Assembly: GCA_024229515.1 (NCBI GenBank)
Contig: JAAESI010000275.1
Coordinates: forward strand, 131,181-195,180
Reading direction: 5' to 3'
Length of the DNA stretch: 64,000 nt
Source of the DNA: Pseudomonadota bacterium
GTDB taxonomy: Bacteria; Myxococcota_A; UBA796; UBA9615
Below the pieces are notes generated by a model. That model searched no databases. It saw only the letters and a program-made list of their open reading frames with translations, and was not told the origin of the DNA. A program made the position numbers and the translations under genes. This document shows, one piece after another, positions 14,853 to 56,523 of this stretch (position 1 is the first letter of the stretch; each line of letters opens with the position of its first letter).

Positions 14853-16802
14853 TCAATCGCGGCGGCGAACCAGGCCCAGGATCAGGAGCGCGAGTCCCCC
14901 CACGACGGGCGAGGCGCTGGCGGTCGAGGCGTTGCACGCACAGCCGAACGTGGTCGACCGGCTGGTCGCGGCGTCCGCGTCGGTGCCCTGCACGCCCTCG
15001 TCGTCGTCCCACCAGGCGTCGTCGGCGGAGTCGTCGTCGTCGCCGACGGAGTCCGAGTCATCGTCATCGGAGACGTCGTCGTCGTCGGTGGCGTCGTCGT
15101 CGTCGTCGTCGTCGGGACCGTCGTCGTCATCGTCGGTGGCGTCGTCGTCATCGGAGACGTCGTCGTCATCGGAGACGTCGTCGTCATCGCCCGGGGGCAG
15201 CGGGTCTTCGCCGTCGCAGTCCTGGTCGATGCCGTCACCGGGGATGTCGGTGGCGGCGGGGTTGATCGAGGCGTCCGCGTCGTCGCAGTCGGCCGGATCG
15301 TCGCAGGCGAGCCAGCCGTCACCGTCGCCGTCGATCAGGTCGGCGTTGATGCCGTCGCAGTCGCTGTCGGCGCCGTCGCAGATCTCCGGGGCGCCCGGGT
15401 AGATGAAGATGTCGCCGTCGTCGCAGTCGCCGTCGCAGGTGAGGAAGCCGTCGCCGTCCAGGTCGAAGCCTTCGTCGACCACGAGGTCGCAGTCGTTGTC
15501 CACGAAGTCGCAGATCTCGACCGCGCCGGGGAAGACGCCGGCGTCGCTGTCGTCGCAGTCGCCGTCGCACGCCTCGTAGCCGTCACCGTCGGCGTCGAAG
15601 CCCTCGTCGGCGTTGCCGTCGCAGTCGTTGTCGGCCGAGTCGCAGATCTCGGGGGCGCCGGGGTTGATGGCGGCGTTGGTGTCGTTGCAGTCGCCCGCGC
15701 AGGTGGTCCAGCCGTCGCCGTCGCCGTCGAAGCCCTCGTCGACGTTGCCGTCGCAGTCCTGGTCGATCCCGTCGCAGACCTCGGTCGCGCCGGGGGAGAT
15801 GCCGGCGTTGTTGTCCACGCAGTCGCCGCCGCAGGTGGTCCAGCCGTCGCCGTCGCCGTCGAAGCCTTCGTCGACGCTGCCGTCGCAGTCCTGGTCGAGG
15901 CCGTCGCACGCCTCGGAGGCGCCCGGGTTGATGCTGGCGTTGTTGTCCAGGCAGTCGCCCGCGCAGGTGGTCCAGCCGTCGCCGTCGTTGTCGTAGCCCT
16001 CGTCGATGCTGCCGTCGCAGTCGTTGTCGATCGAGTCACACGCCTCGGCCATGCCGGGGTTGATCGAGGGGTTGCCGTCGTCGCAGTCGGTGCTCGCGTC
16101 CCAGCCGTCGCCGTCGGCGTCCGTCACCGGGGGCGGCGGGTAGAAGCCGATGCCGTAGCCGTCGGTCAGGAGCGAGGAGCTGTTGCAGCTGGGGCTCAGG
16201 AGCGCGCCGCCGTAGATGCCGACCGAGGCGGAGGCGCCGTTGGTGTAGGTCGAGCTCCCCAGGTCGGTGTCCAGGTAGACGAACTCGATGTGGTCGTCGA
16301 CGTCGTGGAGCTGGACTTCGAGGGTCACGTCGCCGGTGCCGGCGAAGTTCTCGATGTAGTACCACTCGGCGATGAACACGAGGTTGCCGCCGGGGTCGGT
16401 GCCGGTGCCCGCGTAGACGCCCAGGGAGTTGGTCGCGCTGGGGTCGAGGTCGTCCCAGAAGGGGGCCGCGATGTCGTTGCCGTAGTTGCTCAGCGGGCAC
16501 TGGTTGATGAAGCTCAGCGTGCTGCCGCCGGTCCCGAACGTGATGGCGCCATTGGAGTGCACGCGCACGTCCGTGTAGGTGATCCCATAGAACTCGAACG
16601 AGAAGCCGAGCGCGACCACCTGACTGTCGTCATCGCCCAGACCGAGGGGGCTGCCGGGGGCGTAGTAGTAGGTGCCCGGGGGGCCGGATGGGTCGTTCGT
16701 GTCCGCCCAGGTGTAGCCCCAGGCGTCCGGTCCACCGTTGGCGGCCGCCGCCACGGAGGGGAGGGCGAGCATGAATGGGAGGATCCACCGCAACCGCGAC
16801 AA
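14853..16802 (-). CDS. secreted Cys-rich repeat protein (MopE-like putative metal-binding repeats) with poly-Asp tail and MYXO-CTERM-type sorting signal
   Basis: Signal peptide; 6 repeats DxDGDGWxxCxGDCxDxxxxINPGAxExCDGxDxDCDGxxDEG; DDDDVS/DDDDAT run; C-terminal GCACNASTASASPVVGGLALLILGLVRRRD. Confidence 0.75.
   Translation of the reverse strand: MSRLRWILPFMLALPSVAAAANGGPDAWGYTWADTNDPSGPPGTYYYAPGSPLGLGDDDSQVVALGFSFEFYGITYTDVRVHSNGAITFGTGGSTLSFINQCPLSNYGNDIAAPFWDDLDPSATNSLGVYAGTGTDPGGNLVFIAEWYYIENFAGTGDVTLEVQLHDVDDHIEFVYLDTDLGSSTYTNGASASVGIYGGALLSPSCNSSSLLTDGYGIGFYPPPPVTDADGDGWDASTDCDDGNPSINPGMAEACDSIDNDCDGSIDEGYDNDGDGWTTCAGDCLDNNASINPGASEACDGLDQDCDGSVDEGFDGDGDGWTTCGGDCVDNNAGISPGATEVCDGIDQDCDGNVDEGFDGDGDGWTTCAGDCNDTNAAINPGAPEICDSADNDCDGNADEGFDADGDGYEACDGDCDDSDAGVFPGAVEICDFVDNDCDLVVDEGFDLDGDGFLTCDGDCDDGDIFIYPGAPEICDGADSDCDGINADLIDGDGDGWLACDDPADCDDADASINPAATDIPGDGIDQDCDGEDPLPPGDDDDVSDDDDVSDDDDATDDDDDGPDDDDDDDATDDDDVSDDDDSDSVGDDDDSADDAWWDDDEGVQGTDADAATSRSTTFGCACNASTASASPVVGGLALLILGLVRRRD
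15000..15195 (-). repeat. imperfect tandem repeats encoding DDDDVS / DDDDAT acidic tail of MYXO-CTERM protein
   Basis: gtcgtcgtcatcggagac / gtcgtcgtcggtggc units on + strand. Confidence 0.7.
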
Positions 16803-28739: not shown

Positions 28740-29531
28740 CTAGAAGACGATGGTCAGTGACGCGGACACCCCGCCGCCACCGTCGCGGGACACTACCGGC
28801 GCCACGCTGCCCGAGACCCGGGCATAGAGGCGGTGCGGCGTCTGCGTCTCCGCGGTGTACTCGAGGTGGCCGATCAGGCCGAACAGCGCCAGCGCGCCGC
28901 CCGCGGCCGCGAACGACAGCGTCGTGAACATGTCCGAGTAGCTGTAGACGCCGCCCGGGTCGCCGTTGACGCCCAGGTTGTCTCGCGCCGCCCACACCAC
29001 GCCCGAGAGCACGGCGATCGCACCGACGAAGGCCGACCCGATCAGGCCCGTGTCACGCCGCAGCTGGAACAGGTTCGTCCGCCACGCGCGCATCATACGC
29101 AGCCTCCCCAGCCGGGTCGTCGGCGCGTGGTCGAGGTAGTGGTGCAGGTAGTGGTTCGAGCCCATCATCGCGGGCACGCCGGTCACCAGGACCGCCAACC
29201 CCGCGGGAACGCCCGCTCCGGCGATGAACGGCGCCTGCGTGCCCCCCTCGCTCGAGAGCAGGTTGACCGCCCCGGACAGCAGCGTGATGCCCATGATGAC
29301 GCCGCCGGCGGCGATGAGGATACCGCCCTCGCGACGCACCGAAAGCGCGTACCGGACCGCCGTGTCCTCGCGGTCCATGTCCCGGACGGCGTCGCGGAAC
29401 TCCTTGCCCATCATCTTGTCGAGCGCTTCTTTCGGCGTCGGCTCGGGCGCGGGCGCGGGCTCTTCAGCGGCCGCGGGGAGCGCCAGGAGCGTGCAGAGGA
29501 TGAGGGCGAGGAGCGCAGTCGGTCGTTTCAT
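28740..29531 (-). CDS. secreted/membrane hypothetical protein (Gly-rich hydrophobic segments, ends ...SLTIVF)
   Basis: Signal peptide MKRPTALLALILCTLLALPAAA; C-terminal Phe; first gene of minus-strand hydrolase operon. Confidence 0.5.
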   Translation of the reverse strand: MKRPTALLALILCTLLALPAAAEEPAPAPEPTPKEALDKMMGKEFRDAVRDMDREDTAVRYALSVRREGGILIAAGGVIMGITLLSGAVNLLSSEGGTQAPFIAGAGVPAGLAVLVTGVPAMMGSNHYLHHYLDHAPTTRLGRLRMMRAWRTNLFQLRRDTGLIGSAFVGAIAVLSGVVWAARDNLGVNGDPGGVYSYSDMFTTLSFAAAGGALALFGLIGHLEYTAETQTPHRLYARVSGSVAPVVSRDGGGGVSASLTIVF

Positions 29532-29928: not shown

Positions 29929-30660
29929 TTGCCTACGATGACCTTCGTGCCCCGCGTGCTCGCCCTAGCGCTCCTGAGCGCCCTGCTGCTTCCCACCCCC
30001 GCCCTCGCCGGCAAGCCCGATGACGTCTCGGACGTCGTGGAGTTCGATCCGCAGCAGTGGCGAACGGTGGCGGAGGGCCTGCCTGCCTTCCAGGAGTACC
30101 GACAGCGCCGGCTCGTGCTCACGATCCGCAACGGCGAGTTCATCGGCCCCGGGCACCTGGGCTACCGGCGCAGCTCCTTCCGCGAGGACAACGCTTCGTT
30201 CTTCTACATCGTGGTCGAGGGGGACGCGGACTACCGCCTCACCTACTCCGACCTCATCCGGCTCAGCGGAGACCCCGTCGTCGTCAACCGGTACGAGCGC
30301 TTCATCGCCGCCGCCCGGAAGGACCAGACCTCCGGCGCGGCCCTGTTCGGCGTGGGCGTCGGCTTCGCCCTCGCGTCCGTGATCGTGAGCTCCATCGCGT
30401 TCGAGGAGTGGAACAACACGTGGTCGCCGGCGGTGCTGCCCCCGCTGTACGGCGGCACCATCACGTTCATGCTCGTGGGCGGCGGGCTGGCCGCCCAGGG
30501 CAAGCACACGCAGCAGCAGTTGGCCGAGGACTATCGGCTGGAGCGCATCCTCGATCGGGACGAAGCGTGGGCCGCGATCCAGCGCCACAACGCAGCCCTC
30601 CGACGGGAGCTCGGCCTCCCCGATGACGAGCGCATGGACGCCCCCACCGCTCAGCGCTGA
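29929..30660 (+). CDS. hypothetical membrane protein
   Basis: Signal peptide VLALALLSALLLPTPALA plus two TM segments; 243 aa. Confidence 0.5.
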   Translation: MPTMTFVPRVLALALLSALLLPTPALAGKPDDVSDVVEFDPQQWRTVAEGLPAFQEYRQRRLVLTIRNGEFIGPGHLGYRRSSFREDNASFFYIVVEGDADYRLTYSDLIRLSGDPVVVNRYERFIAAARKDQTSGAALFGVGVGFALASVIVSSIAFEEWNNTWSPAVLPPLYGGTITFMLVGGGLAAQGKHTQQQLAEDYRLERILDRDEAWAAIQRHNAALRRELGLPDDERMDAPTAQR

Positions 30661-31175
30661 AGCAGCTCCTCCATCGCGCCTTCCCAGGCCTCGATGGACT
30701 GCCACCCGGCCCACTCCCGGAACACCTTGCCGTCCCGGTCCAGGACGATGCCGTAGGGGATGACCTCGGGGTACGTGCCCCCCAGACCCGCAACCGCCGC
30801 GAGCAGCTTGGGCTGGGGCGCGGCGGGCACGATGTAGGGGGTGAAGGTCGCGCCGGTGAGGCCGAGCATGTCCTCCAGCGCACCGATGTCCGTGTCGACC
30901 GAGACGATGACGAACTTGATGTCGTCGCCTTCCCACTGCTTCACCGTGCGGTTGAGCCCGGGGAGCGACGACTGGCACGCGGGGCATCAGCTGGCCCACA
31001 GGTACAGGACGGTGATCTTGCCCGCGGCGGTGCCCGCTTCGACCTGCTGAACGACGTGGTTGAGCGCCACGGGCTGCACCGGGGCGGAGCGGTGCAGGGA
31101 GCCTCGCGGGATCAGCGTGATGAGGCCCAGGACGCCGACGAGGCCGCCCAGCACCAACACCAGCGCTTTGCGCAT
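30651..31175 (-). pseudogene. TlpA/ResA-like thiol:disulfide oxidoreductase (thioredoxin fold) interrupted by in-frame TGA
   Basis: Continuous frame MRKALVLVLGGLVGVLGLITL...GKITVLYLWAS[TGA]CPACQSSLPGLNRTVKQWEGDDIKFVIVSVD...; TGA at 30987-30989 replaces Trp of WCxxC; two track ORFs (30987..31250, 30651..30944) are the halves. Confidence 0.6.
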
Positions 31176-31182: not shown

Positions 31183-34100
31183 CTACGGGTCGCAGTCGAG
31201 GAAGATCGTGTACTCGCCCTCGTTGGCGTTCGCCTCCGTCGCCGTTGCATCGACCACGAAGTAGTACGTGTAGCCGGAGACCACCTCGACGGTGCCGCTG
31301 TTGAAAATCAGGGCGCCTTCGACGCACTGGTTGTTCACGCACTCGCCGTTGGTGCCGTCCAACACGACGATGTCGTGGTTCAGGTCCGCGGGGCTGGCGT
31401 CCACGAAGCCGACCTCGATCGACCCGGTGACCGTGGAGACCCACTCGTAGGCGACTTCCGGCGCGTGGTAGTTGCCCACGTTGCAGGGGTAGCCGTCCAT
31501 CGAGTCGGTCTGGCCGGGGCTCGGGCTGTCGTCGGTCCAGCTGTTGTCTCCGTCGAGGAAGTCGCCGCAGCTGATCTGGATGGCGCCGTCGGTGTCGCAG
31601 TAGGCGGCGCAACCGGGCGCGCCATTGCAGTCGTCGTCGTCGCAGTCGATGAGCTCGTCGTTGTCGTCGTCGACGCCGTTGCCGCAGTCCTCGGCGTCCT
31701 CGACCGGCTCGCAGTCGACGGCGATCTCGAAGTCGCCCTCGTCGCCCTGGTAGCCGTCCACGACGATCCAGTAGTCACCGCCCGGCTCGGTCTCGAACTC
31801 GGCCGACAGAGCGCCGAACTCGATGCAGCTCTCGCTGCTGCAGGGGATGCCCTGGTCGTCCAGGATGAAGACGTCGAGGTCGATGCCGCTGGCGTAGCTC
31901 AAGTCCACGGACACGTTGTTGGCCTGGTCCAGCGGAGCCTGGAAGTAGTAGGCGAACTCCGGCCCGGACTCGACCCAGCTGGTGCAGCTGTAGCTGTCGA
32001 CCTGGTCGGTGCTGTTGGGGCCACCGTTGTTGTAGCTGTCGACGCTGCCGCAGAAGAGCGACCAGGCCTCGGCGCAGATCTCGGTGCAGACGACCTTGTC
32101 CTCGCAGGCGGGGTCGTCGCAGTCGGTCAGGCCGTTGCCGTCGTCGTCGACCTCGTTGCCGCAGACCTCAGCCGTGCTCGGGCACTCGACCTCGATGTCG
32201 AAGCTGCCCTGCGCGCCCTCGTAGCCGTCGATGACGAAGTAGTACTGCTCGCCTCCGACCGCGTCGAAGTTGATGCAGCTGTTGCCGAAGTCGGAGCAGT
32301 TGTTCCCGTTGCAGCCGCCGTTCTCGTCGATGAGGAACATGTCCAGATCGGAGCTCAGGTTGCTGATGCAGACCGTGATGGACTCGTCGACCTCCGGCCG
32401 GAACACGTACGTGTACTCGGGTCCGGTCTCTTCCCAACCGACGCAGCTGTACTGGTCGATGTTGTTGGTGCTGCCGCCGCCCCAGTTGGTCCAGGCGTCG
32501 GTGTCGCCGCAGGACAGCTCCCAGGCGTCCTCGCAGACGCCGCCGACGCCGATGACGTCGCAGTCCTCGTCGCCTTCGCAGTCCACGTCGTCGCAGTCCG
32601 CGGCGCCGTCGCCGTCGTCGTCCACGAAGTTGTCGCAGACCTCGCCGCAGATCGGGTCGTCGCCGGAGCACTCCTGATCGTCGCAGTCCACGTCGCCGTC
32701 GCCGTCGTCGTCGATGTTGTTGTTGCAGTCCTCGACGAGGCAGGCGGAGTCGCTGATGCAGTCCGCGTCGGCGCAGTCCACGTCGCCGTCCCAGTCGTTG
32801 TCGATGGCGTCGTCGCAGTCCTCGATGCCGCAGAAGGAGGCGCAGTCCTCGTCGTCGCAGTCGACGTCACCGTCGCCGTCGTCGTCGGTGTTGTTGGTGC
32901 AGTCCTCCGCGCACGAGGGCAAGGAGGCGCAGTCGGTGTCGTTGCAGTCCACGGCGCCATCGCTGTCGTTGTCGAGGTCGTCGTCGCAGATCTCCGAGGC
33001 CGAGGTGCAGGCGGGGGTGCCGGTGCACTCGCTGTCGGCGCAGTCGATCTGGCCGTCATCGTCGTTGTCGATGTCGTCGTTGCAGATCTCGTCGATGCAG
33101 TCGGTGAACAGGTAGCAGCCGGTGTCGTCGCAGTCGGTGTCGAGGTCGCCGTCGTTGTCGATGCCGTCGTCGCAGATCTCGTCGTCGCATGACGGCCAGC
33201 CGAGGCAGTCGTCGTCGTCGCAGTCCAGGTCGCCGTCCAGGTCGTTGTCGATGCCGTCCCAGCACAGCTCCTCCTGGCAGTCGATCGAGTCGACGCACTC
33301 GGCGTCGTCGCAATCGGCGGCGAGGTCGCCGTCGTCGTCGGTGCCGTTCCAGCAGATCTCCGCGATGCAGTTACTGTCCGCGGTGCAGGTCGGGTCGGCG
33401 CAGTCGATGAGGCCGTCGCCGTTGTCGTCGATGTCGTTGGAGCAGTCCTCCTGCGAGTCGGCGCAGACGGGGTTGCCGACGCACTCCAGGTCGGCGCAGT
33501 CGGTCTGGCCGTCGGCGTCGTCGTCGAGGCCGTTGGAGCAGTTCTCCGGCATGCAGGTGGGGGCCACCGAGCACTCCACGTCGGCGCAGTCGATCTGGGC
33601 GTCGCCGTCGTCGTCGACGCCGTTGCTGCAGTCCTCGGGCGTGCACGCGGGGGTTCCGTCGCACTCGTCGTCGGCGCAGTCGATGAAGCCGTCGCCGTCG
33701 TCGTCGATCGTGTTTGTGCAGCCCTCGGGGATGCAGTCGCTGTCGGAGCTGCAGTCCGTGTCGCCGCAGTCCACCGCACCGTCGCCGTCGTTGTCGCTGC
33801 CGTCGGCGCAGTCCTCGCTGAGGATCCAGCAGAAGATGTCGAACAGGCAGGCGATGTCGTCGCAGTCGATGTCGCCGTTGGCGTTGTCGTCGAGGTTGTT
33901 GGCGCAGTCCTCGCCGCCGCTGCCGCCGCAGTCGGTGGACTCGGCGCAGTTGGCGTCCTCGCAGTCGATGGCGCCGTCGCCGTCGTTGTCGATGCCGTCG
34001 TTGCAAATCTCCGGCTCGGGGGCGCCGCACGCGGGGGTGTCGATGCACTGCGGGTCGTTGCAGTCGATCAGGCCGTTGCCGTTGTCGTCGATGCTGTTGG

Positions 34101-36270
34101 TGCAGATCTCGAAGCCCTCACCGCCGCAGGCCGGGTCGGGGCCGCAGTCGCCGATGTCGGCGCAGTCGATGAGCGCGTCGCCGTCGTCGTCCACGCCGTT
34201 GGTGCAATCGGTCTCGCTGCCGCCGGGGCCGCCGGGGTTGCAGGCGGGGTGGCCCGTGCAGTCGCTGTCGAAGCAGTCGACGTCGCCGTCGCCGTCGTTG
34301 TCGATGTTGTCGATGCAGTCCTCACCCGAGCAGGCCGGGAGGATGCTGCACTCGGTGTCGGAGCAGTCGATGAGGCCGTCGTCGTCGTCGTCGATGCCGT
34401 TGTCGCAGATCTCGCCGACGCAGGCGGCGTCCACCGCGCAGTCGGAGTCGGCGCAGTCGACCTGGCCGTCACCGTCGTTGTCGACGCCGTCGGTGCAGAC
34501 CTCGGGCACGCAGCCGGGGGTGCCGGCGCAGTCGCTGTCGTCGCAGTCGGTGGCGCCGTCGCCGTCGTTGTCGATGCCGTCGGTGCAGTCCTCCGGCGCG
34601 CCGCCGAGGTTGCACTCGATGTCGAGGTCGAAGGAGCCGACGTTGTTGTTCCAGCCGTCGACGACGACGTAGTAGGTCGTGCCGCCGACCACGGTCATGG
34701 TCACCGACTCGGGGTTGGTGCCGCCGGAGGTGGAGCTGTCGAGGCAGCCGTCGGGGCTGCAGCCGCCCGCGTCCTGGAGGCCGAAGAGGTCCAGGTCGGC
34801 GTCGAGGCCGTTGAGCGTGAACGTCACCTCACCGGAGCCGGTGGGGGTGAAGCTCCAGGCCAGCTCGTTGCCGTTCTCGTTGGACGGGGTGCACGAGTAG
34901 GTGCTGATGACGTCCGCCGCGCCGGGGTCGGTGTCGGTGTTGCCCGAGATGGTCCCGGAGTCGCAGGTGATGGTGCCGACGGGGTTGCAGGTCTGCACGC
35001 AGAAGGCGCTGGTGGCGCACTCGCTGTCGTCGCAGTCGATGGCGCCGTCGCCGTCGTCGTCGGTGCCGTTGCCGCAGTTCTCGACGTTGCAGTTGGGGTG
35101 GCTGAAGCACTCGGGGTCGGCGCAGTCGACGGCCGCGTCGCCGTCGTCGTCGATCAGGTTGTCGCAGATCTCGACGTCGCAGCCGGGGAGCACGAAGCAC
35201 TCGTCGTCGTCACAGTCGATGAGGCCGTCGCCGTCGTCGTCCAGGCCGTTGAAGCAGTCGTCCTCGGGGATGCAGTCGCTGTCGCCGAAGCAGTCGCTGT
35301 CGTCGCAGTCGGTGAGGCCGTCACCGTCGTTGTCGATGCCGTCGCGGCACTCTTCGTTGTTGCAGGTCGGGTAGCCGAAGCACTCGGAGTCATCGCAGTC
35401 GACGAGGCCGTTGCCGTTGTCGTCGATGCCGTTCTCGCAGTCCTCGCCGTCGCAGGAGGGCTCGCCCCAGCACTCGGTGTCGTCACAGTCGACGTAGCCG
35501 TCGCCGTCGTCGTCGAGGTTGTTGTCGCACTCCTCGTCGAGGCAGTACGGGTCGAGGGAGCAGTCGAGGTCGTCGCAGTCGATGTCGCCGTCGCCGTCGT
35601 CGTCGATGCCGTTGAAGCAGTTCTCGCCGTCGCCGCCGCCAGAGGGGCAGAGGAGCTCGAGGCTGAAGTTGTCCTGGCCGCCGGCGTAGCCGTCGACGAC
35701 GACGAGGTAGTCCTCGCCCGCGGACGCGGTGAAGTGCACGGTGGAGGCGCCGTAGGCGATGCAGTCGGTGCCTTCGCAGGTGCCGTCGTCCTCGAGTACG
35801 AAGACGTCGAGGTTGCCGTGACCGGCGACCGTCAGGACCGCGGTGACCTCCTCCGTCGTGGTCGGGCTGAAGCTGAAGGTGTACTCGGGACCGGACTCGT
35901 CCCACGTCGTGCAGGAGTCGTACGTGTCGACCGCGTCGGTGTGGCCCGCGCCGCCGTTGTTGGAGCTGAGGATGTCGCCGCAGGAGATCGACTCAGCCGC
36001 GGTGCACTCGTGCGCGCAGTTCGGGTTGAGCTCGCAGTCCTCGTCACCGCAGTCGGTGAGGCCGTCGCCGTCGTCGTCGATCCCGTTGGAGCAGTCCTCG
36101 TTGTCGTAGGTCTGCGTCGGGTTGTCGTCGTCGTCGTCGGGCAGGTTCAGGGAATCATCGTCATCAAGAACGGTGTTGTCCGTGATGCCGCAGTTGCAAC
36201 CTGCCAGGAGCAGGGGCAGCAGCAGCAGCAGGAACATCTTGGTACAGCCAGAAATCGAGGCAGCGCGCAT
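31183..36270 (-). CDS. giant secreted lipoprotein: arrays of 28-aa 4-Cys Asp-rich repeats alternating with five beta-sandwich (PPC-like) domains
   Basis: RBS GGAG, MRAASISGCTKMFLLLLLPLLLAGC; about 50 repeats C-x-[ND]-G-x-D-[DN]-[DN]-G-[DN]-G-x-x-D-C-x-D-x-x-C-x(4,5)-C; about 1.7 kaa, >200 Cys. Confidence 0.8.
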   Translation of the reverse strand: MRAASISGCTKMFLLLLLPLLLAGCNCGITDNTVLDDDDSLNLPDDDDDNPTQTYDNEDCSNGIDDDGDGLTDCGDEDCELNPNCAHECTAAESISCGDILSSNNGGAGHTDAVDTYDSCTTWDESGPEYTFSFSPTTTEEVTAVLTVAGHGNLDVFVLEDDGTCEGTDCIAYGASTVHFTASAGEDYLVVVDGYAGGQDNFSLELLCPSGGGDGENCFNGIDDDGDGDIDCDDLDCSLDPYCLDEECDNNLDDDGDGYVDCDDTECWGEPSCDGEDCENGIDDNGNGLVDCDDSECFGYPTCNNEECRDGIDNDGDGLTDCDDSDCFGDSDCIPEDDCFNGLDDDGDGLIDCDDDECFVLPGCDVEICDNLIDDDGDAAVDCADPECFSHPNCNVENCGNGTDDDGDGAIDCDDSECATSAFCVQTCNPVGTITCDSGTISGNTDTDPGAADVISTYSCTPSNENGNELAWSFTPTGSGEVTFTLNGLDADLDLFGLQDAGGCSPDGCLDSSTSGGTNPESVTMTVVGGTTYYVVVDGWNNNVGSFDLDIECNLGGAPEDCTDGIDNDGDGATDCDDSDCAGTPGCVPEVCTDGVDNDGDGQVDCADSDCAVDAACVGEICDNGIDDDDDGLIDCSDTECSILPACSGEDCIDNIDNDGDGDVDCFDSDCTGHPACNPGGPGGSETDCTNGVDDDGDALIDCADIGDCGPDPACGGEGFEICTNSIDDNGNGLIDCNDPQCIDTPACGAPEPEICNDGIDNDGDGAIDCEDANCAESTDCGGSGGEDCANNLDDNANGDIDCDDIACLFDIFCWILSEDCADGSDNDGDGAVDCGDTDCSSDSDCIPEGCTNTIDDDGDGFIDCADDECDGTPACTPEDCSNGVDDDGDAQIDCADVECSVAPTCMPENCSNGLDDDADGQTDCADLECVGNPVCADSQEDCSNDIDDNGDGLIDCADPTCTADSNCIAEICWNGTDDDGDLAADCDDAECVDSIDCQEELCWDGIDNDLDGDLDCDDDDCLGWPSCDDEICDDGIDNDGDLDTDCDDTGCYLFTDCIDEICNDDIDNDDDGQIDCADSECTGTPACTSASEICDDDLDNDSDGAVDCNDTDCASLPSCAEDCTNNTDDDGDGDVDCDDEDCASFCGIEDCDDAIDNDWDGDVDCADADCISDSACLVEDCNNNIDDDGDGDVDCDDQECSGDDPICGEVCDNFVDDDGDGAADCDDVDCEGDEDCDVIGVGGVCEDAWELSCGDTDAWTNWGGGSTNNIDQYSCVGWEETGPEYTYVFRPEVDESITVCISNLSSDLDMFLIDENGGCNGNNCSDFGNSCINFDAVGGEQYYFVIDGYEGAQGSFDIEVECPSTAEVCGNEVDDDGNGLTDCDDPACEDKVVCTEICAEAWSLFCGSVDSYNNGGPNSTDQVDSYSCTSWVESGPEFAYYFQAPLDQANNVSVDLSYASGIDLDVFILDDQGIPCSSESCIEFGALSAEFETEPGGDYWIVVDGYQGDEGDFEIAVDCEPVEDAEDCGNGVDDDNDELIDCDDDDCNGAPGCAAYCDTDGAIQISCGDFLDGDNSWTDDSPSPGQTDSMDGYPCNVGNYHAPEVAYEWVSTVTGSIEVGFVDASPADLNHDIVVLDGTNGECVNNQCVEGALIFNSGTVEVVSGYTYYFVVDATATEANANEGEYTIFLDCDP
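31250..36150 (-). repeat. intragenic tandem repeats (84-nt unit, about 50 copies in blocks) encoding the 28-aa 4-Cys Asp-rich module
   Basis: Recurrent gtcgcagtc...gccgtcgccgtcgtcgtcgat...gcagtc pattern on + strand; protein-level periodicity. Confidence 0.8.
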
Positions 36271-36289: not shown

Positions 36290-36411
36290 CCCTCAGAGAG
36301 AGGGACAACAGACCGTGTCAAGAACGTGTCAAGAGGTCAAGTGCAGCGGCGTTCCATCACAACGATTCCACAGGTCGGCCACATAAGTATGATGCCCGCG
36401 CGCGTCGCGGC
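36290..36411. promoter_or_regulatory. divergent promoter region (giant repeat-protein gene <-> ftsE) with three tandem TTGAC[AC] hexamers / GTCAAG direct repeats
   Basis: + strand GTGTCAAGAACGTGTCAAGAGGTCAAG (36315-36341) = minus-strand TTGACC-TTGACA-TTGACA; locally lower GC; TAAGTAT box before ftsE. Confidence 0.4.
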
Positions 36412-37245
36412 ATGATCGAGTTCAAGAACGTCACCAAGCGGTACGGCCGATTCGGAACGGCCCTCGAAGGCATCGATCTGACGATCGATACGGGACAGTT
36501 CGTGTTCGTCACGGGCTCTTCGGGTGCCGGCAAATCGACCCTCCTGAAGCTTCTGTACGCCGCTGAGCAGCCTACGACTGGCGACGTGCTCATCGAAGGG
36601 CGATCGGTCGCCCGTTTGCATCCGCGATCGGTCCCCTACCTCAGGCGAAACCTGGGGGTGGTGTTTCAGGACTTCAAGCTGCTGCCCCAGCGGACGGTGA
36701 TCGAGAACGTCGCCCTGCCGCTGGAGGTCACCGGCACGCCCCGGGCGGAGATCGCCGCGCGGGTGACGGAAGTCATCAAACAGGTCGGACTCAAGGGGCG
36801 CGGAGATCGTCGGCCCGGCGAGCTCTCCGGAGGCGAGCAGCAGCGTGTTGCGATCGCCCGCGCGGTGGTCGGCAAGCCGAGCATCGTCATCGCCGACGAG
36901 CCGACGGGGAACCTGGACGCGGCCCTGACCCACGAGATCTTCGAACTGCTGGTGAAGCTGCACGAGCAGGACGGCACGACGGTGTTGGTGGCGACGCACG
37001 ACACGGTCGAGCTGGATCACTGGAACTTCCGTCGGATCGCTCTGCGGGACGGCCGGCTGGAGCCCGGCGGGACAGATTCCCTGCCCCTGCCGCCGCCGGC
37101 CGGGGCCGAGGTCATGAAGGCGGCTGCCGGTCCGGAGCCTGAGCCCGAGGACGAACCCGAGGACGAGGACGAGGACGAGGACGAGCCCGACACCGATCCC
37201 GACGCCGACCCCGGGGACGACGAGCCCGACGAGGCAGCCTCGTGA
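36412..37245 (+). CDS. ftsE: cell-division ABC transporter ATPase FtsE with acidic EPEPEDE... C-terminal extension
   Basis: MIEFKNVTKRYG, Walker A GSSGAGKST, signature LSGGEQQRVAIARA, Walker B IVIADEPTGNLD; about 55-aa D/E/P tail. Confidence 0.9.
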   Translation: MIEFKNVTKRYGRFGTALEGIDLTIDTGQFVFVTGSSGAGKSTLLKLLYAAEQPTTGDVLIEGRSVARLHPRSVPYLRRNLGVVFQDFKLLPQRTVIENVALPLEVTGTPRAEIAARVTEVIKQVGLKGRGDRRPGELSGGEQQRVAIARAVVGKPSIVIADEPTGNLDAALTHEIFELLVKLHEQDGTTVLVATHDTVELDHWNFRRIALRDGRLEPGGTDSLPLPPPAGAEVMKAAAGPEPEPEDEPEDEDEDEDEPDTDPDADPGDDEPDEAAS

Positions 37246-38135
37246 CGCCCTACGCCGTCCGCCGCGCCTTCAAGGGCATCGTCGAGCATCGCTTCCTCGC
37301 CGTGGCGACGATCGGCACCGTCGCCACCGTGCTCATCCTCGGCGGCGCGTTCCTGCTGGTCATCACCAACCTCTCGGGCCTGCTCGACCGCTGGGGCCAG
37401 GACGTGCAGGTCAGCTGCTACCTCCGCGAGGACGTCGGCGACGAGGCGCTGTTCGCCATCAAGGCGGAGATCGAGGCCATGCCGGAGGTCATCTCCGTCC
37501 GGTACGTCAGCCAGGACGAGGCGCTGGAGCGGTTCGGTGAAGCAGTCGACGGCATGGACCGCATCCTCGCCGACCTGGACAGCAACCCCCTCCCCGCCAG
37601 CCTGGAGGTCCGCCTCCGCCCCGAGCTCCAGCAGCCCGCCCGGGTCGCCGACGTCGCCTCGCGGCTGTCACGCCCCGAGTTCGAGGACATGGACTGGAGT
37701 CAGGAGTGGGTGGAGCGGTTCCACACCTTCTTGGGGCTGCTGCGGCTGAGCGCGCTGGTGCTCGGAACGCTGCTCCTGGCGGCGGCGATGTTCCTCGTCA
37801 ACACGACGATCCGCCTCGCGATCCACTCGCGCCGCGACGAGCTCGAGATCATCCAGCTCGTCGGCGGCACCCGGTGGTTCGCGCGGACCCCGTTCGTGGT
37901 CGAGGGGATGGCCCTGGGGGGACTCGGAGCGCTGGTCGCCCTCGCCGTTCTTCCCCTCCTCTACAAGTACGCGTTCGTGCAACTGCAAGCGTCCCTGGGG
38001 ATGCTCCTGAGCATGGGCACCGTCGAGTTCCTGCCGGTTCCCACGCTGCTGGGCTTGTTCGTCGCGGGGCTCGCCGTCGGCTTCGTCGGCGCCTTCACGT
38101 CCGTCATCCGCTCCAACGTCGGGACCGTGTCGTGA
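37242..38135 (+). CDS. ftsX: cell-division permease FtsX
   Basis: GTG overlaps ftsE stop (GTGA); 4 TM with large periplasmic loop, typical FtsX topology. Confidence 0.85.
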   Translation: MTPYAVRRAFKGIVEHRFLAVATIGTVATVLILGGAFLLVITNLSGLLDRWGQDVQVSCYLREDVGDEALFAIKAEIEAMPEVISVRYVSQDEALERFGEAVDGMDRILADLDSNPLPASLEVRLRPELQQPARVADVASRLSRPEFEDMDWSQEWVERFHTFLGLLRLSALVLGTLLLAAAMFLVNTTIRLAIHSRRDELEIIQLVGGTRWFARTPFVVEGMALGGLGALVALAVLPLLYKYAFVQLQASLGMLLSMGTVEFLPVPTLLGLFVAGLAVGFVGAFTSVIRSNVGTVS

Positions 38136-39169
38136 ACCGCGCCGTGGCCGTCGTGCTGCTGCTGCTGGCGGTGCCGGCGGGAGCGCAGACCCGCCAGGAT
38201 CGGTTGGACGCGCTGGACCGGCTCGAGGTCGAGCTGTTGCGCATCGACGAAGAGCTGCGGGCGGCGTCGATCCGCCTCCGCGAGCAGGATGGGCGCCTCC
38301 GCGAGCTGGAGGCCGACCTGGCGGAGGCCGAGGAGCGGCTGGAAGAGCGACGCGGACGGCTTGAGCTGCGGCTGCGGGCGATGTACCGCATGCGGCACCG
38401 GGGCTTCCTCCCCCTGCTGTTCGCGGCCGACAGCCCCCATGAGCTGCTTCGATCGGCCCGGTACCTGTGGTGGATCGTGCGCGCGGACCAAAGCGCGATC
38501 GACGACTGGCGGGCCCAGGAGGAGGCGGTTGACCAGCTGCGCGCGAGCGTGGAGGCGGAGCGGGAGTCGCTGCTGCAATGGGCGGGCGAGCAGAGCCTCC
38601 GGCGTGAGCAGGCGCTGGCGGAGCGGGGCGAGCACGAGGCGTCGGTGGGCCGCGTGCGCAGCTCGACCGACCGGCGGCGGATGAAGACCGTCATCGTGCC
38701 CGACGGCAACCCGAGCCCCACCGTCGACGTCTCCATCGACCTGCGCGGAGAAGAGCCGCCGCCCGAGTTGGCCTCCGAGGTCGTCGCCCCCCAGACGACG
38801 TTCGAGCGGAGCAAGGGCATGCTCCCCCTGCCCGCCGTCGGCACCCTCGAGCGGGCCTCCCGCGGCGTCGACATCGCCGTCATCGAGGGCAGCTCGATCC
38901 GCGCGGTCCACGGCGGCACGGTCTTCAAGGTCGTCGACATCGAGGGGTTCGGCCGCGTCTGCATCCTCGACCACGGCGACGGCTGGCACACGGTCTACGG
39001 CCTCGCGGAGGGCTTCGACGTGCGCTCGGGCGAGCACGTGGCGGGCGGCGACGTCATAGGACGGGCGGGCGCCAACGGCCTGCACTTCGAGGTCCGGCAG
39101 GGCCGCGACGCCGCCGATCCGTTCGAATGGCTCGCCATCCCCCCCGGAGTGAGGGTACGAGGGCGCTGA
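38132..39169 (+). CDS. envC: murein hydrolase activator EnvC-like (coiled-coil + LytM/M23 domain)
   Basis: GTG overlaps ftsX stop; signal peptide; long coiled coil; C-terminal M23 fold (HGDGWHTVYG...GLHFE). Confidence 0.8.
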   Translation: MNRAVAVVLLLLAVPAGAQTRQDRLDALDRLEVELLRIDEELRAASIRLREQDGRLRELEADLAEAEERLEERRGRLELRLRAMYRMRHRGFLPLLFAADSPHELLRSARYLWWIVRADQSAIDDWRAQEEAVDQLRASVEAERESLLQWAGEQSLRREQALAERGEHEASVGRVRSSTDRRRMKTVIVPDGNPSPTVDVSIDLRGEEPPPELASEVVAPQTTFERSKGMLPLPAVGTLERASRGVDIAVIEGSSIRAVHGGTVFKVVDIEGFGRVCILDHGDGWHTVYGLAEGFDVRSGEHVAGGDVIGRAGANGLHFEVRQGRDAADPFEWLAIPPGVRVRGR

Positions 39170-49309: not shown

Positions 49310-50330
49310 CCGCACCCAGCGCAATCGGGGCGCCGTCCTGCGCCATGGACTTCTGCCCCGCGCAGAGGATGCGAACCACATCCAGGCCCTGCTGACCGGG
49401 GGTGTCCGGCTCCCGGTGCTCCCGCACGCAGTCGACGAAGTGCTGGCACTCGATCGCCAGCGGCTCGCTCATCTTCAGGCTGGGGATCCAGATGTCGCCC
49501 TGCCGCAGTGCGATGAGGTCGGCGTAGGAGTCGTAGTCGACCTGCCGGTCCGCGCCCTTGTCGTAAATCCGGATCTTCTCCGTGGGCACCGTGTCGTCGA
49601 ACGTGACCATCTTGCGGCTGCCCACCAGGGTCATGTTCCGGATCTTGTGGGGGTCCAGCCAGGAGGTGTGGATCTCGGCCGTCTGGCCACCCGCGAACTG
49701 CAGGTTGGCGAAGACGACGTCCTCGTTTCCCGGCCGGATGTAGCTGTTGCCGCGCGCGCTCACGTTCCGGGGGGCGGCGCCGAGCAGGTACAGGATGATC
49801 GAGACGTCATGGGGAGCCAGGGACCACCACGCGCTCTCGTCCTTGCGCACGATGCCGAGGTTCAGGCGCTGGCAGTACAGGTAGTAGATGTCGCCGATCT
49901 CGCCGGCCGTGATCTGCCCCTTAATCCACCGGATTCCGGGGTGGTAGATCATCAGGTGGCCGACCATCAGGATGCGATCGCGCTCCTTGGCCAGTCGGAC
50001 CAGCTCCTCCGCGTGGGCCTCCTCGAGGGCCAGCGGCTTCTCCACGTAGACGTGCTTGTCGGCCAGCAGCGCCGCCTTGGCGAGCTTGTGGTGCGACGCA
50101 GCCTCGGTGCACACCGCGATCGCGCCGATACTCTGGTCGTCTAGGAGCTTGGCGTAGTCGTCCGTGATCGTAGCATCGGGAGCAAAAGCAGCCGCCCGCG
50201 CGCGGTTGCGCTCGTGCAGATCGGCGACCGCGACGAGGCGGGCGCCCTTGCGGTTGGCGAAGTTGCGTACGAGGTTCTTGCCCCAGTAGCCGGCGCCTAC
50301 GACGCCCAGTCCGAGATCCTGATCAGCCAC
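49302..50330 (-). CDS. Gfo/Idh/MocA-family NAD-dependent UDP-sugar dehydrogenase (WbpB-like)
   Basis: GVVGAGYWGKNLV Rossmann motif, EKPLA, 342 aa; directly follows hexapeptide acetyltransferase. Confidence 0.85.
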   Translation of the reverse strand: MADQDLGLGVVGAGYWGKNLVRNFANRKGARLVAVADLHERNRARAAAFAPDATITDDYAKLLDDQSIGAIAVCTEAASHHKLAKAALLADKHVYVEKPLALEEAHAEELVRLAKERDRILMVGHLMIYHPGIRWIKGQITAGEIGDIYYLYCQRLNLGIVRKDESAWWSLAPHDVSIILYLLGAAPRNVSARGNSYIRPGNEDVVFANLQFAGGQTAEIHTSWLDPHKIRNMTLVGSRKMVTFDDTVPTEKIRIYDKGADRQVDYDSYADLIALRQGDIWIPSLKMSEPLAIECQHFVDCVREHREPDTPGQQGLDVVRILCAGQKSMAQDGAPIALGADG

Positions 50331-50901
50331 GGCTCACCGCTCCATCTTTCAACACGTAGCCCTCCCCGGTCCCGGGGCAGACGGCGGTGCCGTCGTCTCC
50401 GAAGTGGAGCCGTTCCCCGCTGGCGGAGACCCACCCCAGGTGCTTGGCCGGCACGCCCACGACGAGGGCGTAGGCGGGGACGTCCTTGGTCACGACGGTG
50501 CCTGCACCGACCATGCTGTAGTCGCCCAGGTTGTTGCCGCAGACGATCGTCGCGTTGGCCCCGACCGTCGCCCCGACGCCGACCCGGGTGGGCCGGAACT
50601 CGTCCTTGCGCTCCACGTGGGCGCGCGGGTTCAACACGTTCGTGAACACGCAACTGGGCCCCAGGAACGCGTCGTTGCAGACGGTCACGCCCTTGTAGAT
50701 CGAGACGTTGTTCTGGACCTTGACCCCGTTCCCGATGGTCACGTCCCGGTCGACGTTGATGTTCTGACCGAAGATACAGCGCTCACCGATCACGGTTCCG
50801 CTCTGCACGTGGTTGAAGAACCAGATCTTGGTTCCCGCGCCGATCTCGACACCATCGTCGATGTAGCTGCTGGGATGAACGAAGAAGGATCCGCCGGTCA
50901 T
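50323..50901 (-). CDS. left-handed beta-helix (hexapeptide) N-acetyltransferase (WbpD-like)
   Basis: Tandem hexapeptide repeats (IGERCIFGQNINV.., VGAGTVVTKDV), 192 aa from MTGGSFFVHP. Confidence 0.8.
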   Translation of the reverse strand: MTGGSFFVHPSSYIDDGVEIGAGTKIWFFNHVQSGTVIGERCIFGQNINVDRDVTIGNGVKVQNNVSIYKGVTVCNDAFLGPSCVFTNVLNPRAHVERKDEFRPTRVGVGATVGANATIVCGNNLGDYSMVGAGTVVTKDVPAYALVVGVPAKHLGWVSASGERLHFGDDGTAVCPGTGEGYVLKDGAVSRG

Positions 50902-50912
50902 GGCGGCGAAGA

Positions 50913-52151
50913 CTACCGGAATCCGAGCGAGACGCCGAGATTCACGCGGTTGTCGATGTACTCGCCCACATTGCTGCTGGACGGATTCACTGCGCTGAAC
51001 TGGTAGCCAGCGAGGATGTGGAACCACTGCGCGACCATCACCTCGATGTTCGCCGCGCCCAGGAACTGGTGCTCCGTACGCGGGATGCCGGGGTCCGAAC
51101 CATCCGCGTCACCCTCGATGTCGCGGTAGGTGTAGACGAAGCGGGCGCCGATGCCGAGGCGGTCGGCGATCGTGCCCTTGTACTTGAAGTACGCCTGCGT
51201 ATCGGTGATGTGATACGCGTAGTAGTGGAAGCTGAAGTCGCGGTTGAAACCGAGCGCGAGGCGCTGGCTGATGACCGGACGGAGCGCGATCTCCGCGGTG
51301 CCGATGAGCCCCTCGAGGCCGGTCAGGTTCTGAGCCTGAAGCGCCTGCCCCAGGTAGACGTTGCCGTACCCGATCATGCCCATCATGGAGAGCTTGCGGG
51401 TCACGTCGCCCTTGAGGCCGGCCTTGGCCCGCCAGTGGGTGTTCTCCACCGCGGCGTCGTGATTGGCGGCGGCCGAAGGACCGACGAAGATGTGACCCAC
51501 GTCGGCGTCCACCAGGAGGTGGCTCCGGGGGAAGAACTTCCAGTCGAGCGACATGCCGCCGCCGACGTCGTGGGTCTGCCCGAGGATCTGCGCGTTCGGA
51601 TCGAAGACCGGGTAGTAGGACCGCACGTACTCCCAGTGACCGTCGATGCCGATCTGGAAGGCTTGCGTGGGGCGAAGGCGGAACTCGATCGGAACCGCCA
51701 CACTCAGGTCGTAGCTGAGGTCGCTGCCCTCTTCGACGCCGACGTCAGCGCCGCGACGGCCCCGACGGTTGGCGAACTCGGGCGAGGTCCAGAATCCGAA
51801 CTTGCCCTGCCGGTTCGCATCGATGGTCGTACCGAGGCCGAAGCTGGCGAGGTCGCGCAGCGCCGAGTGGTCGATGCCGGCAACGTTGAAGTACGTGAAG
51901 AACCGGTAGTAGGCGTTCAACTCCCAGCGGAAGTTGTCGCCCGGGTACACGAACGCGAACTTCGGGAGGATCGTCAGACCGAGGTCGGCGTCGGGAGAGC
52001 GCTGCTCGCGGTAGACGTTCGAGTCGTAGACCGCCTCGATCTTGATGCTGGGCTTGGCGACCAGCGGGCCAAGCGGAAGCCCGTCGTCGGCGGCGAGGCC
52101 AGACGCGGGAACCAGCAACGTGAGGGCTACCGCCGCGACCGCGGCGCGCAT
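50913..52151 (-). CDS. putative outer-membrane beta-barrel protein
   Basis: Signal peptide MRAAVAAVALTLLVPASGLA; alternating aromatic/hydrophobic strands, Y/F/W-rich; ends ...LGVSLGFR. Confidence 0.45.
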   Translation of the reverse strand: MRAAVAAVALTLLVPASGLAADDGLPLGPLVAKPSIKIEAVYDSNVYREQRSPDADLGLTILPKFAFVYPGDNFRWELNAYYRFFTYFNVAGIDHSALRDLASFGLGTTIDANRQGKFGFWTSPEFANRRGRRGADVGVEEGSDLSYDLSVAVPIEFRLRPTQAFQIGIDGHWEYVRSYYPVFDPNAQILGQTHDVGGGMSLDWKFFPRSHLLVDADVGHIFVGPSAAANHDAAVENTHWRAKAGLKGDVTRKLSMMGMIGYGNVYLGQALQAQNLTGLEGLIGTAEIALRPVISQRLALGFNRDFSFHYYAYHITDTQAYFKYKGTIADRLGIGARFVYTYRDIEGDADGSDPGIPRTEHQFLGAANIEVMVAQWFHILAGYQFSAVNPSSSNVGEYIDNRVNLGVSLGFR

Positions 52152-52290
52152 TCGCGCATGCTTGAAATGGACCTTGTTCAGCCCCACCAGTTCGTATCTC
52201 CGCCTCAAACTCAGCTGCCTCGCCGTCGGGTGTGCGCCCCGGCAGGGCTCCTTGTGCCTCAATGCTGCCTACGAATCAACCCTGGGGCCC

Positions 52291-52836: not shown

Positions 52837-52939
52837 GTAGGCGCTACCTCGACTCATGTGGACCTCTCCTGCAGCGGACCGGAGCCACAGTGACTGAGTA
52901 TGGGTTCGCTTAACCCACCTGTCAAACCAGCCTTATCGG

Positions 52940-54361: not shown

Positions 54362-54417
54362 TCCGCCCTCTCGCCCCTAGCGGGGCATCGCATTGCGCAG
54401 AGTCAGTCTGCCGGGAA

Positions 54418-54436
54418 GGTCGACGTGCTGTCGACC
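54418..54436 (-). other. stem-loop GGTCGAC-n5-GTCGACC between exbD and TonB-like gene
   Basis: Perfect 7-bp inverted repeat immediately after exbD stop; weak U-tract; possible attenuator. Confidence 0.3.
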
Positions 54437-54444
54437 CTCGGGGG

Positions 54445-54927: not shown

Positions 54928-54939
54928 CTCGTTCTCCCT

Positions 54940-55650: not shown

Positions 55651-55736
55651 GTGGCCTCGCTGGGGCGGAAAGACGGACGCCGACGGTCATTGGACAGTCA
55701 GCGTCCGGGCAGGTTCCCAAAAAACGAAGGCTTGGG

Positions 55737-56393: not shown

Positions 56394-56523
56394 TGGTCAA
56401 ATACCTCCTGGCGGAATCGAAACGCGATTCGGGTCTGTCGGGGGTCGAAAATCCCCCCCTTGGGGGCGACGACCGGTGGGTTTTACAGGGAAATCCCTTT
56501 GGGGGGAAGAGTGGACGAGATCT

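Follow-up and report, generated by a model that had tools for sequence, protein, structure and literature searches.

A giant bacterial lipoprotein with 32 acidic double-disulfide repeats resembling the teneurin C-rich domain

Introduction

Short acidic modules that are stapled by disulfides and loaded with calcium have been described from proteins such as the teneurins and the thrombospondins. Here, we examine a bacterial gene that appears to carry a module of this kind in many copies, namely a giant lipoprotein gene at 31183..36270 on the minus strand of a 64,000-nucleotide stretch of DNA (hereafter the window) from a bacterium deposited as Pseudomonadota and placed by GTDB in Myxococcota_A (assembly GCA_024229515.1, contig JAAESI010000275.1). 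An earlier note, made from the letters of this stretch alone, had singled the gene out as encoding a lipoprotein of tandem repeats and beta-sandwich domains.

The C-rich domain of the teneurins is extracellular and occurs once per protein, with six cysteines in three disulfides. In human teneurin-4 (7PLP) it has been solved at 1.5 Å with three Ca2+ bound, the ligands being E835, D840, D843, N844, D845, D847, D851, D854 and D856 together with backbone carbonyls; of the three sites, I and II are similar to those of thrombospondin type-3 repeats and III to that of an LDL-receptor A module, and the disulfides pair cysteines 1-3, 2-5 and 4-6 (Meijer et al. 2022, PMC9058538). The consensus of the domain has been given as ExxCx(D/N)xxDx(D/E)xDxxxDCxxx(D/E)C... 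(Tucker 2012, PMC3278476). Teneurin-like proteins are also found in bacteria, where they are defined by the FN-plug, the NHL propeller and the YD shell; more than 20% of the surveyed Myxococcota encode one, and the C-rich module is not discussed in that survey, published in 2026 (PMC13018210).

Several other systems resemble the giant protein in part. Thrombospondin type-3 repeats (as in the TSP-1 signature domain, 1UX6) are likewise tandem, Asp-rich and disulfide-linked, and are wrapped around Ca2+ into an extended 'wire', but their cysteine spacing is unlike that of the repeat described here and there is no sequence-family membership. The nearest functional analogy is provided by the Ca2+-rigidified extenders of giant marine RTX adhesins (e.g. 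MpIBP of Marinomonas), which work on the principle proposed below for the giant protein, i.e. calcium-stiffened tandem modules hold out ligand-binding domains. These adhesins are, however, built of BIg domains of an unrelated fold and have an outer-membrane plug, whereas the giant protein has an N-terminal lipid and neither RTX repeats nor a signal for the type I secretion system. The repeat of the copper protein MopE (PF11617, Cu-binding_MopE) also has a DxDGDG acidic loop, is Cys-rich over a length of about 30-45 aa and is abundant in Myxococcota lipoproteins. Finally, the curated NCBIfam model NF033662 ('acidic double-disulfide repeat-containing protein') describes a strongly acidic repeat with the same four cysteines per ~30 aa; the model names the repeat only, and the combination of a lipobox, repeat blocks and five PPC-like (pre-peptidase C-terminal-like) domains found here represents one sub-family within it.

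Gene, anchoring and domain architecture

The gene is a single open reading frame (ORF), open from 36321 and closed by a stop codon at 31183-31185 according to an ORF scan and translation. There are two candidate starts, ATG codons at 36276 and at 36270, of which the second is probably the true one, because it is preceded by GGAG with a gap of 6 nt and because the closest orthologue (locus L004) has no ATG equivalent to 36276; the product would therefore have 1,695 aa (plus stop). The ORF of about 1.7 kaa at 31183-36270 that the earlier note had reported is thus borne out, with 36270 the likelier of the two starts. The GC content at third codon positions is 0.96, the highest in the window.

The N-terminus (36196..36270) is a signal peptide with the lipobox LLAG-C, as had been noted before, although the Pfam model LPAM_1 scores it below threshold (11.8 vs 20 bits, E = 0.36). 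The lipoprotein signal reads MFLLLLLPLLLAG-C and has the form [LVI][ASTVI][GAS]C after a hydrophobic h-region, the motif being assigned by sequence. The lipidated cysteine opens the sequence C-x-C-G-I-T-D; lipobox and CxCGIT recur in the orthologues, and a lipobox-like N-terminus is present in 90 of the 120 best-matching family members. From the lipid anchor to the first repeat there extends a low-complexity poly-Asp tether (36103..36195, translated as ITDNTVLDDDDSLNLPDDDDDNPTQTYD), and no sorting signal is seen at the C-terminus of the translated protein. We infer from the lipobox, its recurrence in relatives and the even number of cysteines counted below that the giant protein is an extracytoplasmic, anchored lipoprotein.

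After the signal peptide and the tether follow R1, B1, R2-8, B2, R9-30, B3, R31, B4, R32 and B5, where R stands for a repeat and B for a beta-sandwich domain; in other words, repeat blocks of 1-7-22-1-1 modules are arranged around five PPC-like domains. On the minus strand, repeat 1, an acidic double-disulfide module of teneurin-C-rich-like type, is located at 36016..36102 (detected by regular expression, by the repeat alignment A1 and by NF033662), B1 at 35629..36015, the seven tandem modules of repeats 2-8 at 34999..35628 (period 90 nt in Tandem Repeats Finder (TRF), 73% matches) and B2 at 34597..34998. The 22 tandem modules of repeats 9-30, the putative long stalk, occupy 32560..34596 (TRF period 90 nt, 68-77% matches) and are followed by B3 at 32173..32559, the lone repeat 31 between B3 and B4 at 32086..32172, B4 at 31696..32085, the lone repeat 32 between B4 and B5 at 31609..31695 (both lone repeats by regular expression and alignment A1) and the C-terminal B5 at 31186..31608.

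Counting with a regular expression tuned on the sequence gave 32 repeats, each consisting of a 26-residue core and a linker of about four residues, which amounts to a period of 30 aa (90 nt in TRF). NF033662 matches the protein with 579.9 bits (E = 3.9e-179, against a cut-off of 41 bits) in 31 stretches. In alignment A1, the profile of the 32 repeats, C4, C18, C23 and C29 are invariant and the consensus is xExCxNGIDDDGDGxxDCDDxxCxxxPxC, or in its family form xExCx[ND]GxD[DN]DGDGxxDCxDx[DE]Cx5C. A Pfam scan of the whole protein matched no family in the repeats and found only PPC; single repeats also match EF-hand models, and thrombospondin type-3 (PF02412) is absent among the families that they match at E <= 10.

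In composition the protein is extreme, with 163 Cys (9.6%) and 362 Asp (21%). Of the cysteines, 128 belong to the repeats and 32 to the five B domains; the remaining three are that of the signal peptide, the lipidated one and a conserved extra residue, and once these three are set aside an even number, 160, is left. The mature protein would have 1,671 aa, 174 kDa and a pI near 4, with 472 Asp and Glu against 3 Lys and Arg. The earlier note had put the array at about 50 repeats of 28 aa and the cysteines at more than 200, figures that give way to the counts above; its four-cysteine, Asp-rich periodicity stands, but the motif as it was written matches only nine of the repeats.

The conserved extra cysteine can be described further. 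In all orthologues, C-x(1,2)-C-G-I-T-D follows the lipobox, and the second cysteine, two residues past the lipobox Cys (36190-36198, minus strand), is the sole unpaired cysteine of the mature protein once the disulfides of repeats and domains are accounted for. A disulfide to another molecule or metal binding near the membrane would be possible roles for it.

The five beta-sandwich domains are each about 130 aa long and contain six cysteines, or eight in the case of B3. Scanned one by one with PF04151 (cut-off 25.9 bits), B2 scores above the threshold (32.1 bits; the PPC of a metalloprotease, 2LUW, is matched in the PDB with E = 0.014) and B3 just below it (23.8 bits). The pattern SCGD...SCTxWxExGPEY...DLDVF...VDGYxG is common to B1, B3 and B4, B1 having no Pfam match when taken alone, and B5, delimited from the translation, is divergent and has no significant Pfam match. 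An AlphaFold2 (AF2) model of R29-R30-B3-R31-B4-R32 reached a mean predicted local distance difference test (pLDDT) score of 74.5, and about 80 in the sandwiches. With B3-B4 of this model, Foldseek returned as its best match the tandem collagen-binding domains (CBDs) of ColG (5IKU, E = 2.9e-11), and also a collagenase PPC (5SV5) with a template-modelling score of 0.73 and a root-mean-square deviation (rmsd) of 2.8 Å. B4 is the most conserved domain among the orthologues, with 75% mean column identity (alignment A3).

The B domains are therefore described here as PPC/CBD-like, with the jelly-roll fold of these domains predicted for the modelled B3 and B4, and the proposal of five beta-sandwich domains of pre-peptidase C-terminal type is confirmed by Pfam for B2 and by AF2 and Foldseek for B3 and B4. 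Among the three Pfam families that had been suggested for the protein, PPC was accordingly recovered, and Cu-binding_MopE and the thrombospondin type-3 family were not. In comparison with known PPC/CBD proteins (PF04151; ColG s3a-s3b, 5IKU; 5SV5), the giant protein lacks a protease domain and its B domains each carry three to four extra disulfides.

Relationship of the repeat to the teneurin C-rich domain

When the A1 profile was searched against the PDB, the best match was the C-rich domain of human teneurin-4 (7PLP, E = 7.8e-7), followed by all the teneurin-2, -3 and -4 and fly Ten-m structures and, after these, by EF-hand loops only; the whole protein, when run against the PDB in phmmer, gave the same result. 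The alignment to the teneurins covers 27 of the 29 profile positions, with the four cysteines and eight Ca2+-ligand positions in register. Repeats 18-22 were modelled with AF2 from an alignment of 11 orthologues (pLDDT 82), and the model yielded six PDB matches at E <= 10 in Foldseek, of which ranks 1-5 are teneurin C-rich domains (7PLP_A with an rmsd of 1.2 Å over 30 columns, 7PLP_B with 0.7 Å over 27 columns and 44% identity) and the sixth, a marginal one, is the protease 3VV3 (deseasin MCP-01, 19 columns). Owing to the tiny size of the domain, the E-values of these matches are weak (0.16-0.67), but the fold comparison agrees with the sequence search, and the repeat, as modelled, shares the teneurin C-rich fold.

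The positions that bind calcium in 7PLP are largely kept. All nine ligand positions are acidic or Asn in 23 of the 32 repeats, and six to eight of the nine are so in the others. According to the alignment of hidden Markov models, the bacterial repeat retains the equivalents of cysteines 1, 2, 3 and 5 of the teneurin domain, cysteines 4 and 6 being absent, and therefore the four remaining cysteines would pair as C1-C3 and C2-C4, i.e. in two disulfides per repeat. The repeat is probably a calcium-binding, disulfide-stapled module, and the EF-hand/TSP3-like calcium loop that the earlier note had recognised is upheld by the profile match to 7PLP, by the EF-hand matches and by the TSP3-like Ca sites of 7PLP, the binding itself being a prediction. 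Beyond the module the resemblance ends. A teneurin has one copy with six cysteines, whereas the giant protein has 32 tandem copies with four cysteines each, and the Pfam scan, in which only PPC was found, revealed no transthyretin-like (TTR) domain, FN-plug, NHL propeller or YD shell.

Conservation of the array

About ten full-length orthologues (47-82% identity, 1,609-1,708 aa) are present in public metagenomes and metagenome-assembled genomes (MAGs), and some of them bear source labels (e.g. 'uncultured Rickettsiales', 'Deltaproteobacteria bacterium UBA6601', 'RS363 TaraRedSea') indicative of marine MAGs. An exact copy of the giant protein is absent from the public gene index searched; its closest relative, encoded at L004 on MAG contig CAYFOA010000055, is 85% identical at the protein level with five gap positions over ~1,697 columns. 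Exactly 32 repeats are found in the orthologues P0002, P0004 and P0006 (59-68% identity). In P0001, repeats 28-29 are missing and 27 and 30 are fragmentary, and P0007, P0009 and P0010 are without repeats 14-15 and most of 13; such differences in copy number are clean whole-repeat insertions or deletions.

Identity between a repeat and its positional orthologue is 63-86%, as against 52% between repeats within one protein and 53% between a repeat and its neighbours, and since repeats are closer to their positional orthologues than to the repeats next to them, there is no concerted evolution. The array is thus old and not homogenised, with each position individually constrained. At the DNA level, adjacent copies are 68-78% alike (TRF) and no more than three 30-mers are repeated within the gene, and for these two reasons the tract is not prone to collapse. 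The earlier warning of a recombination and assembly-collapse hazard finds no support, given a protein from another MAG that is 85% identical with five gap positions, and given repeats that correspond one to one among the roughly ten orthologues. The giant gene is real, stable and conserved, and is not an assembly problem.

Proposed function

We propose that the giant protein is an envelope or surface lipoprotein in which a Ca2+-stiffened, polyanionic stalk of 32 modules carries five PPC/CBD-like binding domains. As a whole we would give this reading about an even chance of being correct; it builds on four points that the present analysis establishes, namely the domain architecture, the homologies of repeats and B domains, conserved ligand positions and a stable array. 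Specifically, the protein would be exported by the Sec pathway and then, to judge from the lipobox, be lipidated at Cys25, and some 80 disulfides would form in the periplasm. In each module, the D-x-D-x-D-G-x-x-D loop and the acidic residues that flank it would serve as Ca2+ ligands, as they do in the teneurin C-rich domain with its three Ca2+. In Ca2+-rich seawater, the modules could then load up to ~90 Ca2+, a load that, by analogy with teneurin and TSP3, would neutralise part of the net charge of roughly -470 and stiffen the chain into an extended rod. The block of 22 beads would act as a stalk that holds a membrane-distal head of B3-B5, with B1 and B2 placed along it, and the B3-B4-B5 cluster might bind a polymer or the surface of another cell or particle.

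A number of observations weigh against this proposal. At the level of the module, the conserved Glu is at -2 from Cys1 in the repeat and at -3 in teneurins, and the third teneurin disulfide is missing; owing to this shift and this loss, the third Ca2+ site may differ from that of teneurin. The model of repeats 18-22 has a predicted template-modelling score of 0.46, that is, moderate confidence between modules, and for this reason the rod shape stays a proposal. With regard to the binding domains, B1, B4 and B5 gave no significant PF04151 match when scanned singly, and PPC domains have no single known ligand. The sequence alone does not separate the inner membrane, the periplasmic face of the outer membrane and the cell surface as the location of the protein. 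In addition, no secretion or partner genes are conserved beside the giant gene beyond general collinearity (in the orthologous loci and around P0011 and P0025, two distant homologues), and literature searches by family name and accession returned no paper or experiment on the NF033662 family.

The same chemistry could also serve a purpose without any mechanical stalk, with the protein acting as a high-capacity sink or buffer for divalent cations (Ca2+, Mg2+/Sr2+) or as a nucleator of carbonate or phosphate mineral at the envelope, comparable to calsequestrin or to Asp-rich proteins of biomineralisation. The excess of 472 acidic over 3 basic residues, the pI near 4, the up to three ligand sets in each of 32 repeats and the marine labels of some of the source MAGs would all fit such a role. 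We nevertheless consider it unlikely: disorder and poor conservation are the rule in low-affinity buffers, whereas the repeats here are individually conserved and disulfide-stapled; five interleaved and conserved PPC-like domains would have no role in a pure buffer; and Ca2+ is not limiting in seawater.

Neighbouring genes and the upstream element

If the stalk proposal for the giant lipoprotein is set aside, a function might be sought through the adjacent genes, either with a thioredoxin as dedicated partner or with the protein as an envelope factor tied to the FtsEX-EnvC septal hydrolase system. On one side, a TlpA/ResA-like thioredoxin-fold ORF (30651..31175, minus strand; Pfam and NCBIfam) begins 7 nt after the stop codon of the giant gene. 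A thioredoxin gene had indeed been placed here by the earlier note, with a gap of 8 nt that is 7 nt on recounting, and taken for a dedicated disulfide-handling partner. The ORF is, however, interrupted by an in-frame TGA at 30987-30989 (WAS-stop-CPAC), exactly where TlpA/ResA/DsbE proteins have the Trp codon of their canonical WCxxC; with this stop read as Trp, it matches Thioredoxin_8, AhpC-TSA and Redoxin in Pfam and TlpA/ResA/DsbE in NCBIfam. Furthermore, none of the 12 related loci (L001-L012) has a homologue of it by tblastn, not even L004, that of the closest relative. Because of this absence and of the premature TGA, the thioredoxin is not a dedicated partner and the earlier suggestion falls; the ORF is apparently a lineage-specific, disrupted insertion instead of a conserved companion.

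Two selenoprotein scenarios were considered for this ORF and rejected. A reading of the TGA as a selenocysteine codon is unsupported, as it stands at a Trp and not at a Cys position, as an Rfam scan of the ORF gave no selenocysteine insertion sequence at E <= 1, and as the hairpin downstream of the TGA is not significant (z = -1.6). The NCBIfam WAxxUGC selenoprotein family matches only weakly (19.7 vs 300 bits). A selenocysteine-containing thioredoxin that gene callers might have overlooked in the orthologous loci was likewise dismissed on the basis of the tblastn search of the 12 loci. The TGA probably reflects a pseudogene, a nonsense mutation or a base error.

On the other side, a divergent ftsE-ftsX-M23 (EnvC-like) operon occupies 36412..39169 on the plus strand (Pfam) and is a conserved neighbour in the orthologue clade. 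The arrangement is found again in L001-L003 and, by tblastn, in L004-L006 and L010-L012, so that the operon is divergent in the orthologous loci that cover this side and shares a short intergenic region with the giant gene. It is, however, part of a collinear block of about 16 kb (FtsK-LolA-radical SAM gene-S41 peptidase-hypothetical-M23-FtsX-FtsE), and it is not found beside the distant homologues P0011 and P0025. For these two reasons the adjacency is treated as collinearity at the level of the clade, and a functional link to FtsEX-EnvC drawn from the divergent synteny was downgraded. Altogether, a function coupled to either neighbour is distinctly improbable.

Upstream of the giant gene there is a tripartite element, TTGACC-N2-TTGACA-N5-TTGACA (36316..36340, minus strand). 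In the form gCCC-TTGACC-N1-3-TT(G)ACA-N5-yTTGACA it is present in all nine related loci that cover the region, as a single copy upstream of the orthologue (e.g. at 9910 in L001, 9890 in L002, 9854 in L003, 3753 in L004, 3942 in L006, 3917 in L011 and 2286 in L012), and the intergenic DNA around it diverges among the orthologues. TTGACA itself is present only four times in the 64-kb window. The triple box is a genuine conserved cis-element. It may be bound by a regulator, as a site of direct repeats with 8- and 11-bp spacing, or else act as a -35 box together with sites upstream of it. A promoter with a triple TTGACA had been read here previously; the three conserved boxes stand (the first being TTGACC), but a recognised sigma-70 promoter does not, given that a scan for such promoters found none, and no TATAAT-like -10 box paired with the TTGACA boxes.

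Further genes of the window deserve mention. Two ORFs without family match, at 29929-30660 (plus strand) and 28740-29531 (minus strand), encode hypothetical membrane or secreted proteins, and homologues of them occur near the giant gene in L001, L002, L008 and L012; they may be conserved neighbours. Towards the end of the window (~50000-64000), where GC drops to 63-66%, the minus strand encodes large TPR-rich and coiled-coil proteins (58097-61903, 61666-63999 and 56769-58169), and there are also a protein with a TonB-like C-terminus (52940-54376) and a possible outer-membrane beta-barrel (50913-52268). This region may be an envelope-spanning or motility-type cluster.

Comparison with MopE

In view of the acidic loop that both repeats share, the giant protein could be taken for a MopE-like protein for the acquisition of copper or another metal, and a MopE-like resemblance had been noted at the start. 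Two of the 32 single repeats do match PF11617 weakly (best E = 0.007), some distant relatives carry PF11617, combine both repeat types or are named 'MopE-related', and the core of the teneurin C-rich domain has itself been aligned with the MopE motif (Tucker et al., PMC3278476). Nevertheless, the whole protein has no match to PF11617 at E <= 1 (the gathering threshold of the family being 27 bits).

A control is available within the window. The MYXO-CTERM-type protein at 14853-16802 (minus strand) contains seven genuine PF11617 repeats (210 bits) and has no match to NF033662, so its repeats are of a different kind from those of the giant protein, to which they had been likened. The profile of its repeats (alignment A5) matches MopE (2VOV) with E = 4.8e-8 and no teneurin, whereas the A1 profile does not match 2VOV in the PDB search, and hhalign of A1 against A5 gave a probability of 26% over an 11-residue DxDGDG loop only. 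Judged by these profiles, the two repeats are separate families sharing a calcium-loop-like motif; the resemblance of the acidic loop is kept from the earlier description, and the kinship is not.

The copper site of MopE is reportedly formed by two His and a Trp-derived kynurenine. Among the 1,697 residues of the giant protein there are only 8 His and 18 Trp, none of them at a conserved position of the repeat, and for this reason a copper site of the MopE type is disfavoured; altogether, we regard a role in copper acquisition as very improbable. As side observations on the neighbouring MYXO-CTERM-type protein, its N-terminal ~230 aa have no family match, it has a long poly-Asp tail, and its match to MYXO-CTERM is weak (16.8 bits vs a cut-off of 20 bits). 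With its MYXO-CTERM features and MopE-type repeats, this gene would be in keeping with a Myxococcota-like source.

The reading of the tract as an artefact of assembly, or as an unstable and rapidly recombining repeat of meaningless copy number, which a tandem periodicity of 90 nt in a genome of 70% GC and the whole-repeat indels of P0001, P0007, P0009 and P0010 might suggest, is essentially refuted by the divergence of its DNA copies, the L004 protein, the 32 repeats kept in three orthologues and the excess of positional over neighbour identity.

The wider family

The repeat family is already catalogued. As there is a curated NCBI model for the repeat, and as orthologues are already in public databases, the giant protein adds a member to a known, albeit uncharacterised, family. 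For a survey of this family, a profile of five repeats was run against 1.84 billion proteins, with counts given as representative proteins. This returned 8,243 carriers at E <= 1e-3, 3,463 at E <= 1e-10 and 793 at E <= 1e-30. The 120 best matches have a median of 16 repeats per protein, in arrays interleaved with domains of ~130-165 aa that match PPC, CarboxypepD_reg-like, lamin-tail and other models. Relatives are labelled 'hypothetical' or 'MopE-related' only, with no functional name, and a literature search on 'putative metal-binding motif' in Myxococc* returned nothing.

Two side observations concern particular relatives. P0014, P0051 and others are scored by Pfam as Dicty_CTDC (a Cys-rich repeat of Dictyostelium) with a spacing of 28 aa, which may point to an overlap between the bacterial acidic double-disulfide repeat and several Cys/Asp-rich repeat families of eukaryotes. 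P0073, P0056 and P0086 are shorter lipoproteins of the family that end in single repeats ~165 aa apart, with matches to CarboxypepD_reg (transthyretin-like; 25-29 bits vs a cut-off of 32.3) in one gap each. Single repeats beside such weak matches are reminiscent of the C-rich-TTR pair of teneurins.

Implications

For the giant gene itself, the outcome is mostly a clean annotation. The repeat is common and most of the best-matching relatives examined are lipoprotein-like, yet it comes without a paper, a structure or an assigned function, and no publication was found on large tandem arrays of a teneurin-C-rich-like module in thousands of bacterial lipoproteins. These arrays, which sometimes flank weak, sub-threshold CarboxypepD_reg matches, are the most interesting lead to come out of the analysis. 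For the teneurin C-rich module, Tucker et al. proposed an origin in diatoms (PMC3278476). We tentatively raise a different possibility, which we ourselves rate as rather doubtful, namely that repeat arrays of the Myxococcota type are the prokaryotic home of the module, that animals and choanoflagellates inherited one copy of it along with the bacterial scaffold of TTR and YD-shell toxin and not from a diatom, and that the bacterial arrays represent an unrecognised class of Ca2+-stiffened, disulfide-stapled lipoprotein extenders. In any case, the link to the Ca2+-loaded teneurin C-rich domain gives the family a testable hypothesis, that of three Ca2+ and two disulfides per bead, and it is relevant to the question of where a conserved module of the teneurins, earlier attributed to a diatom gene, came from.

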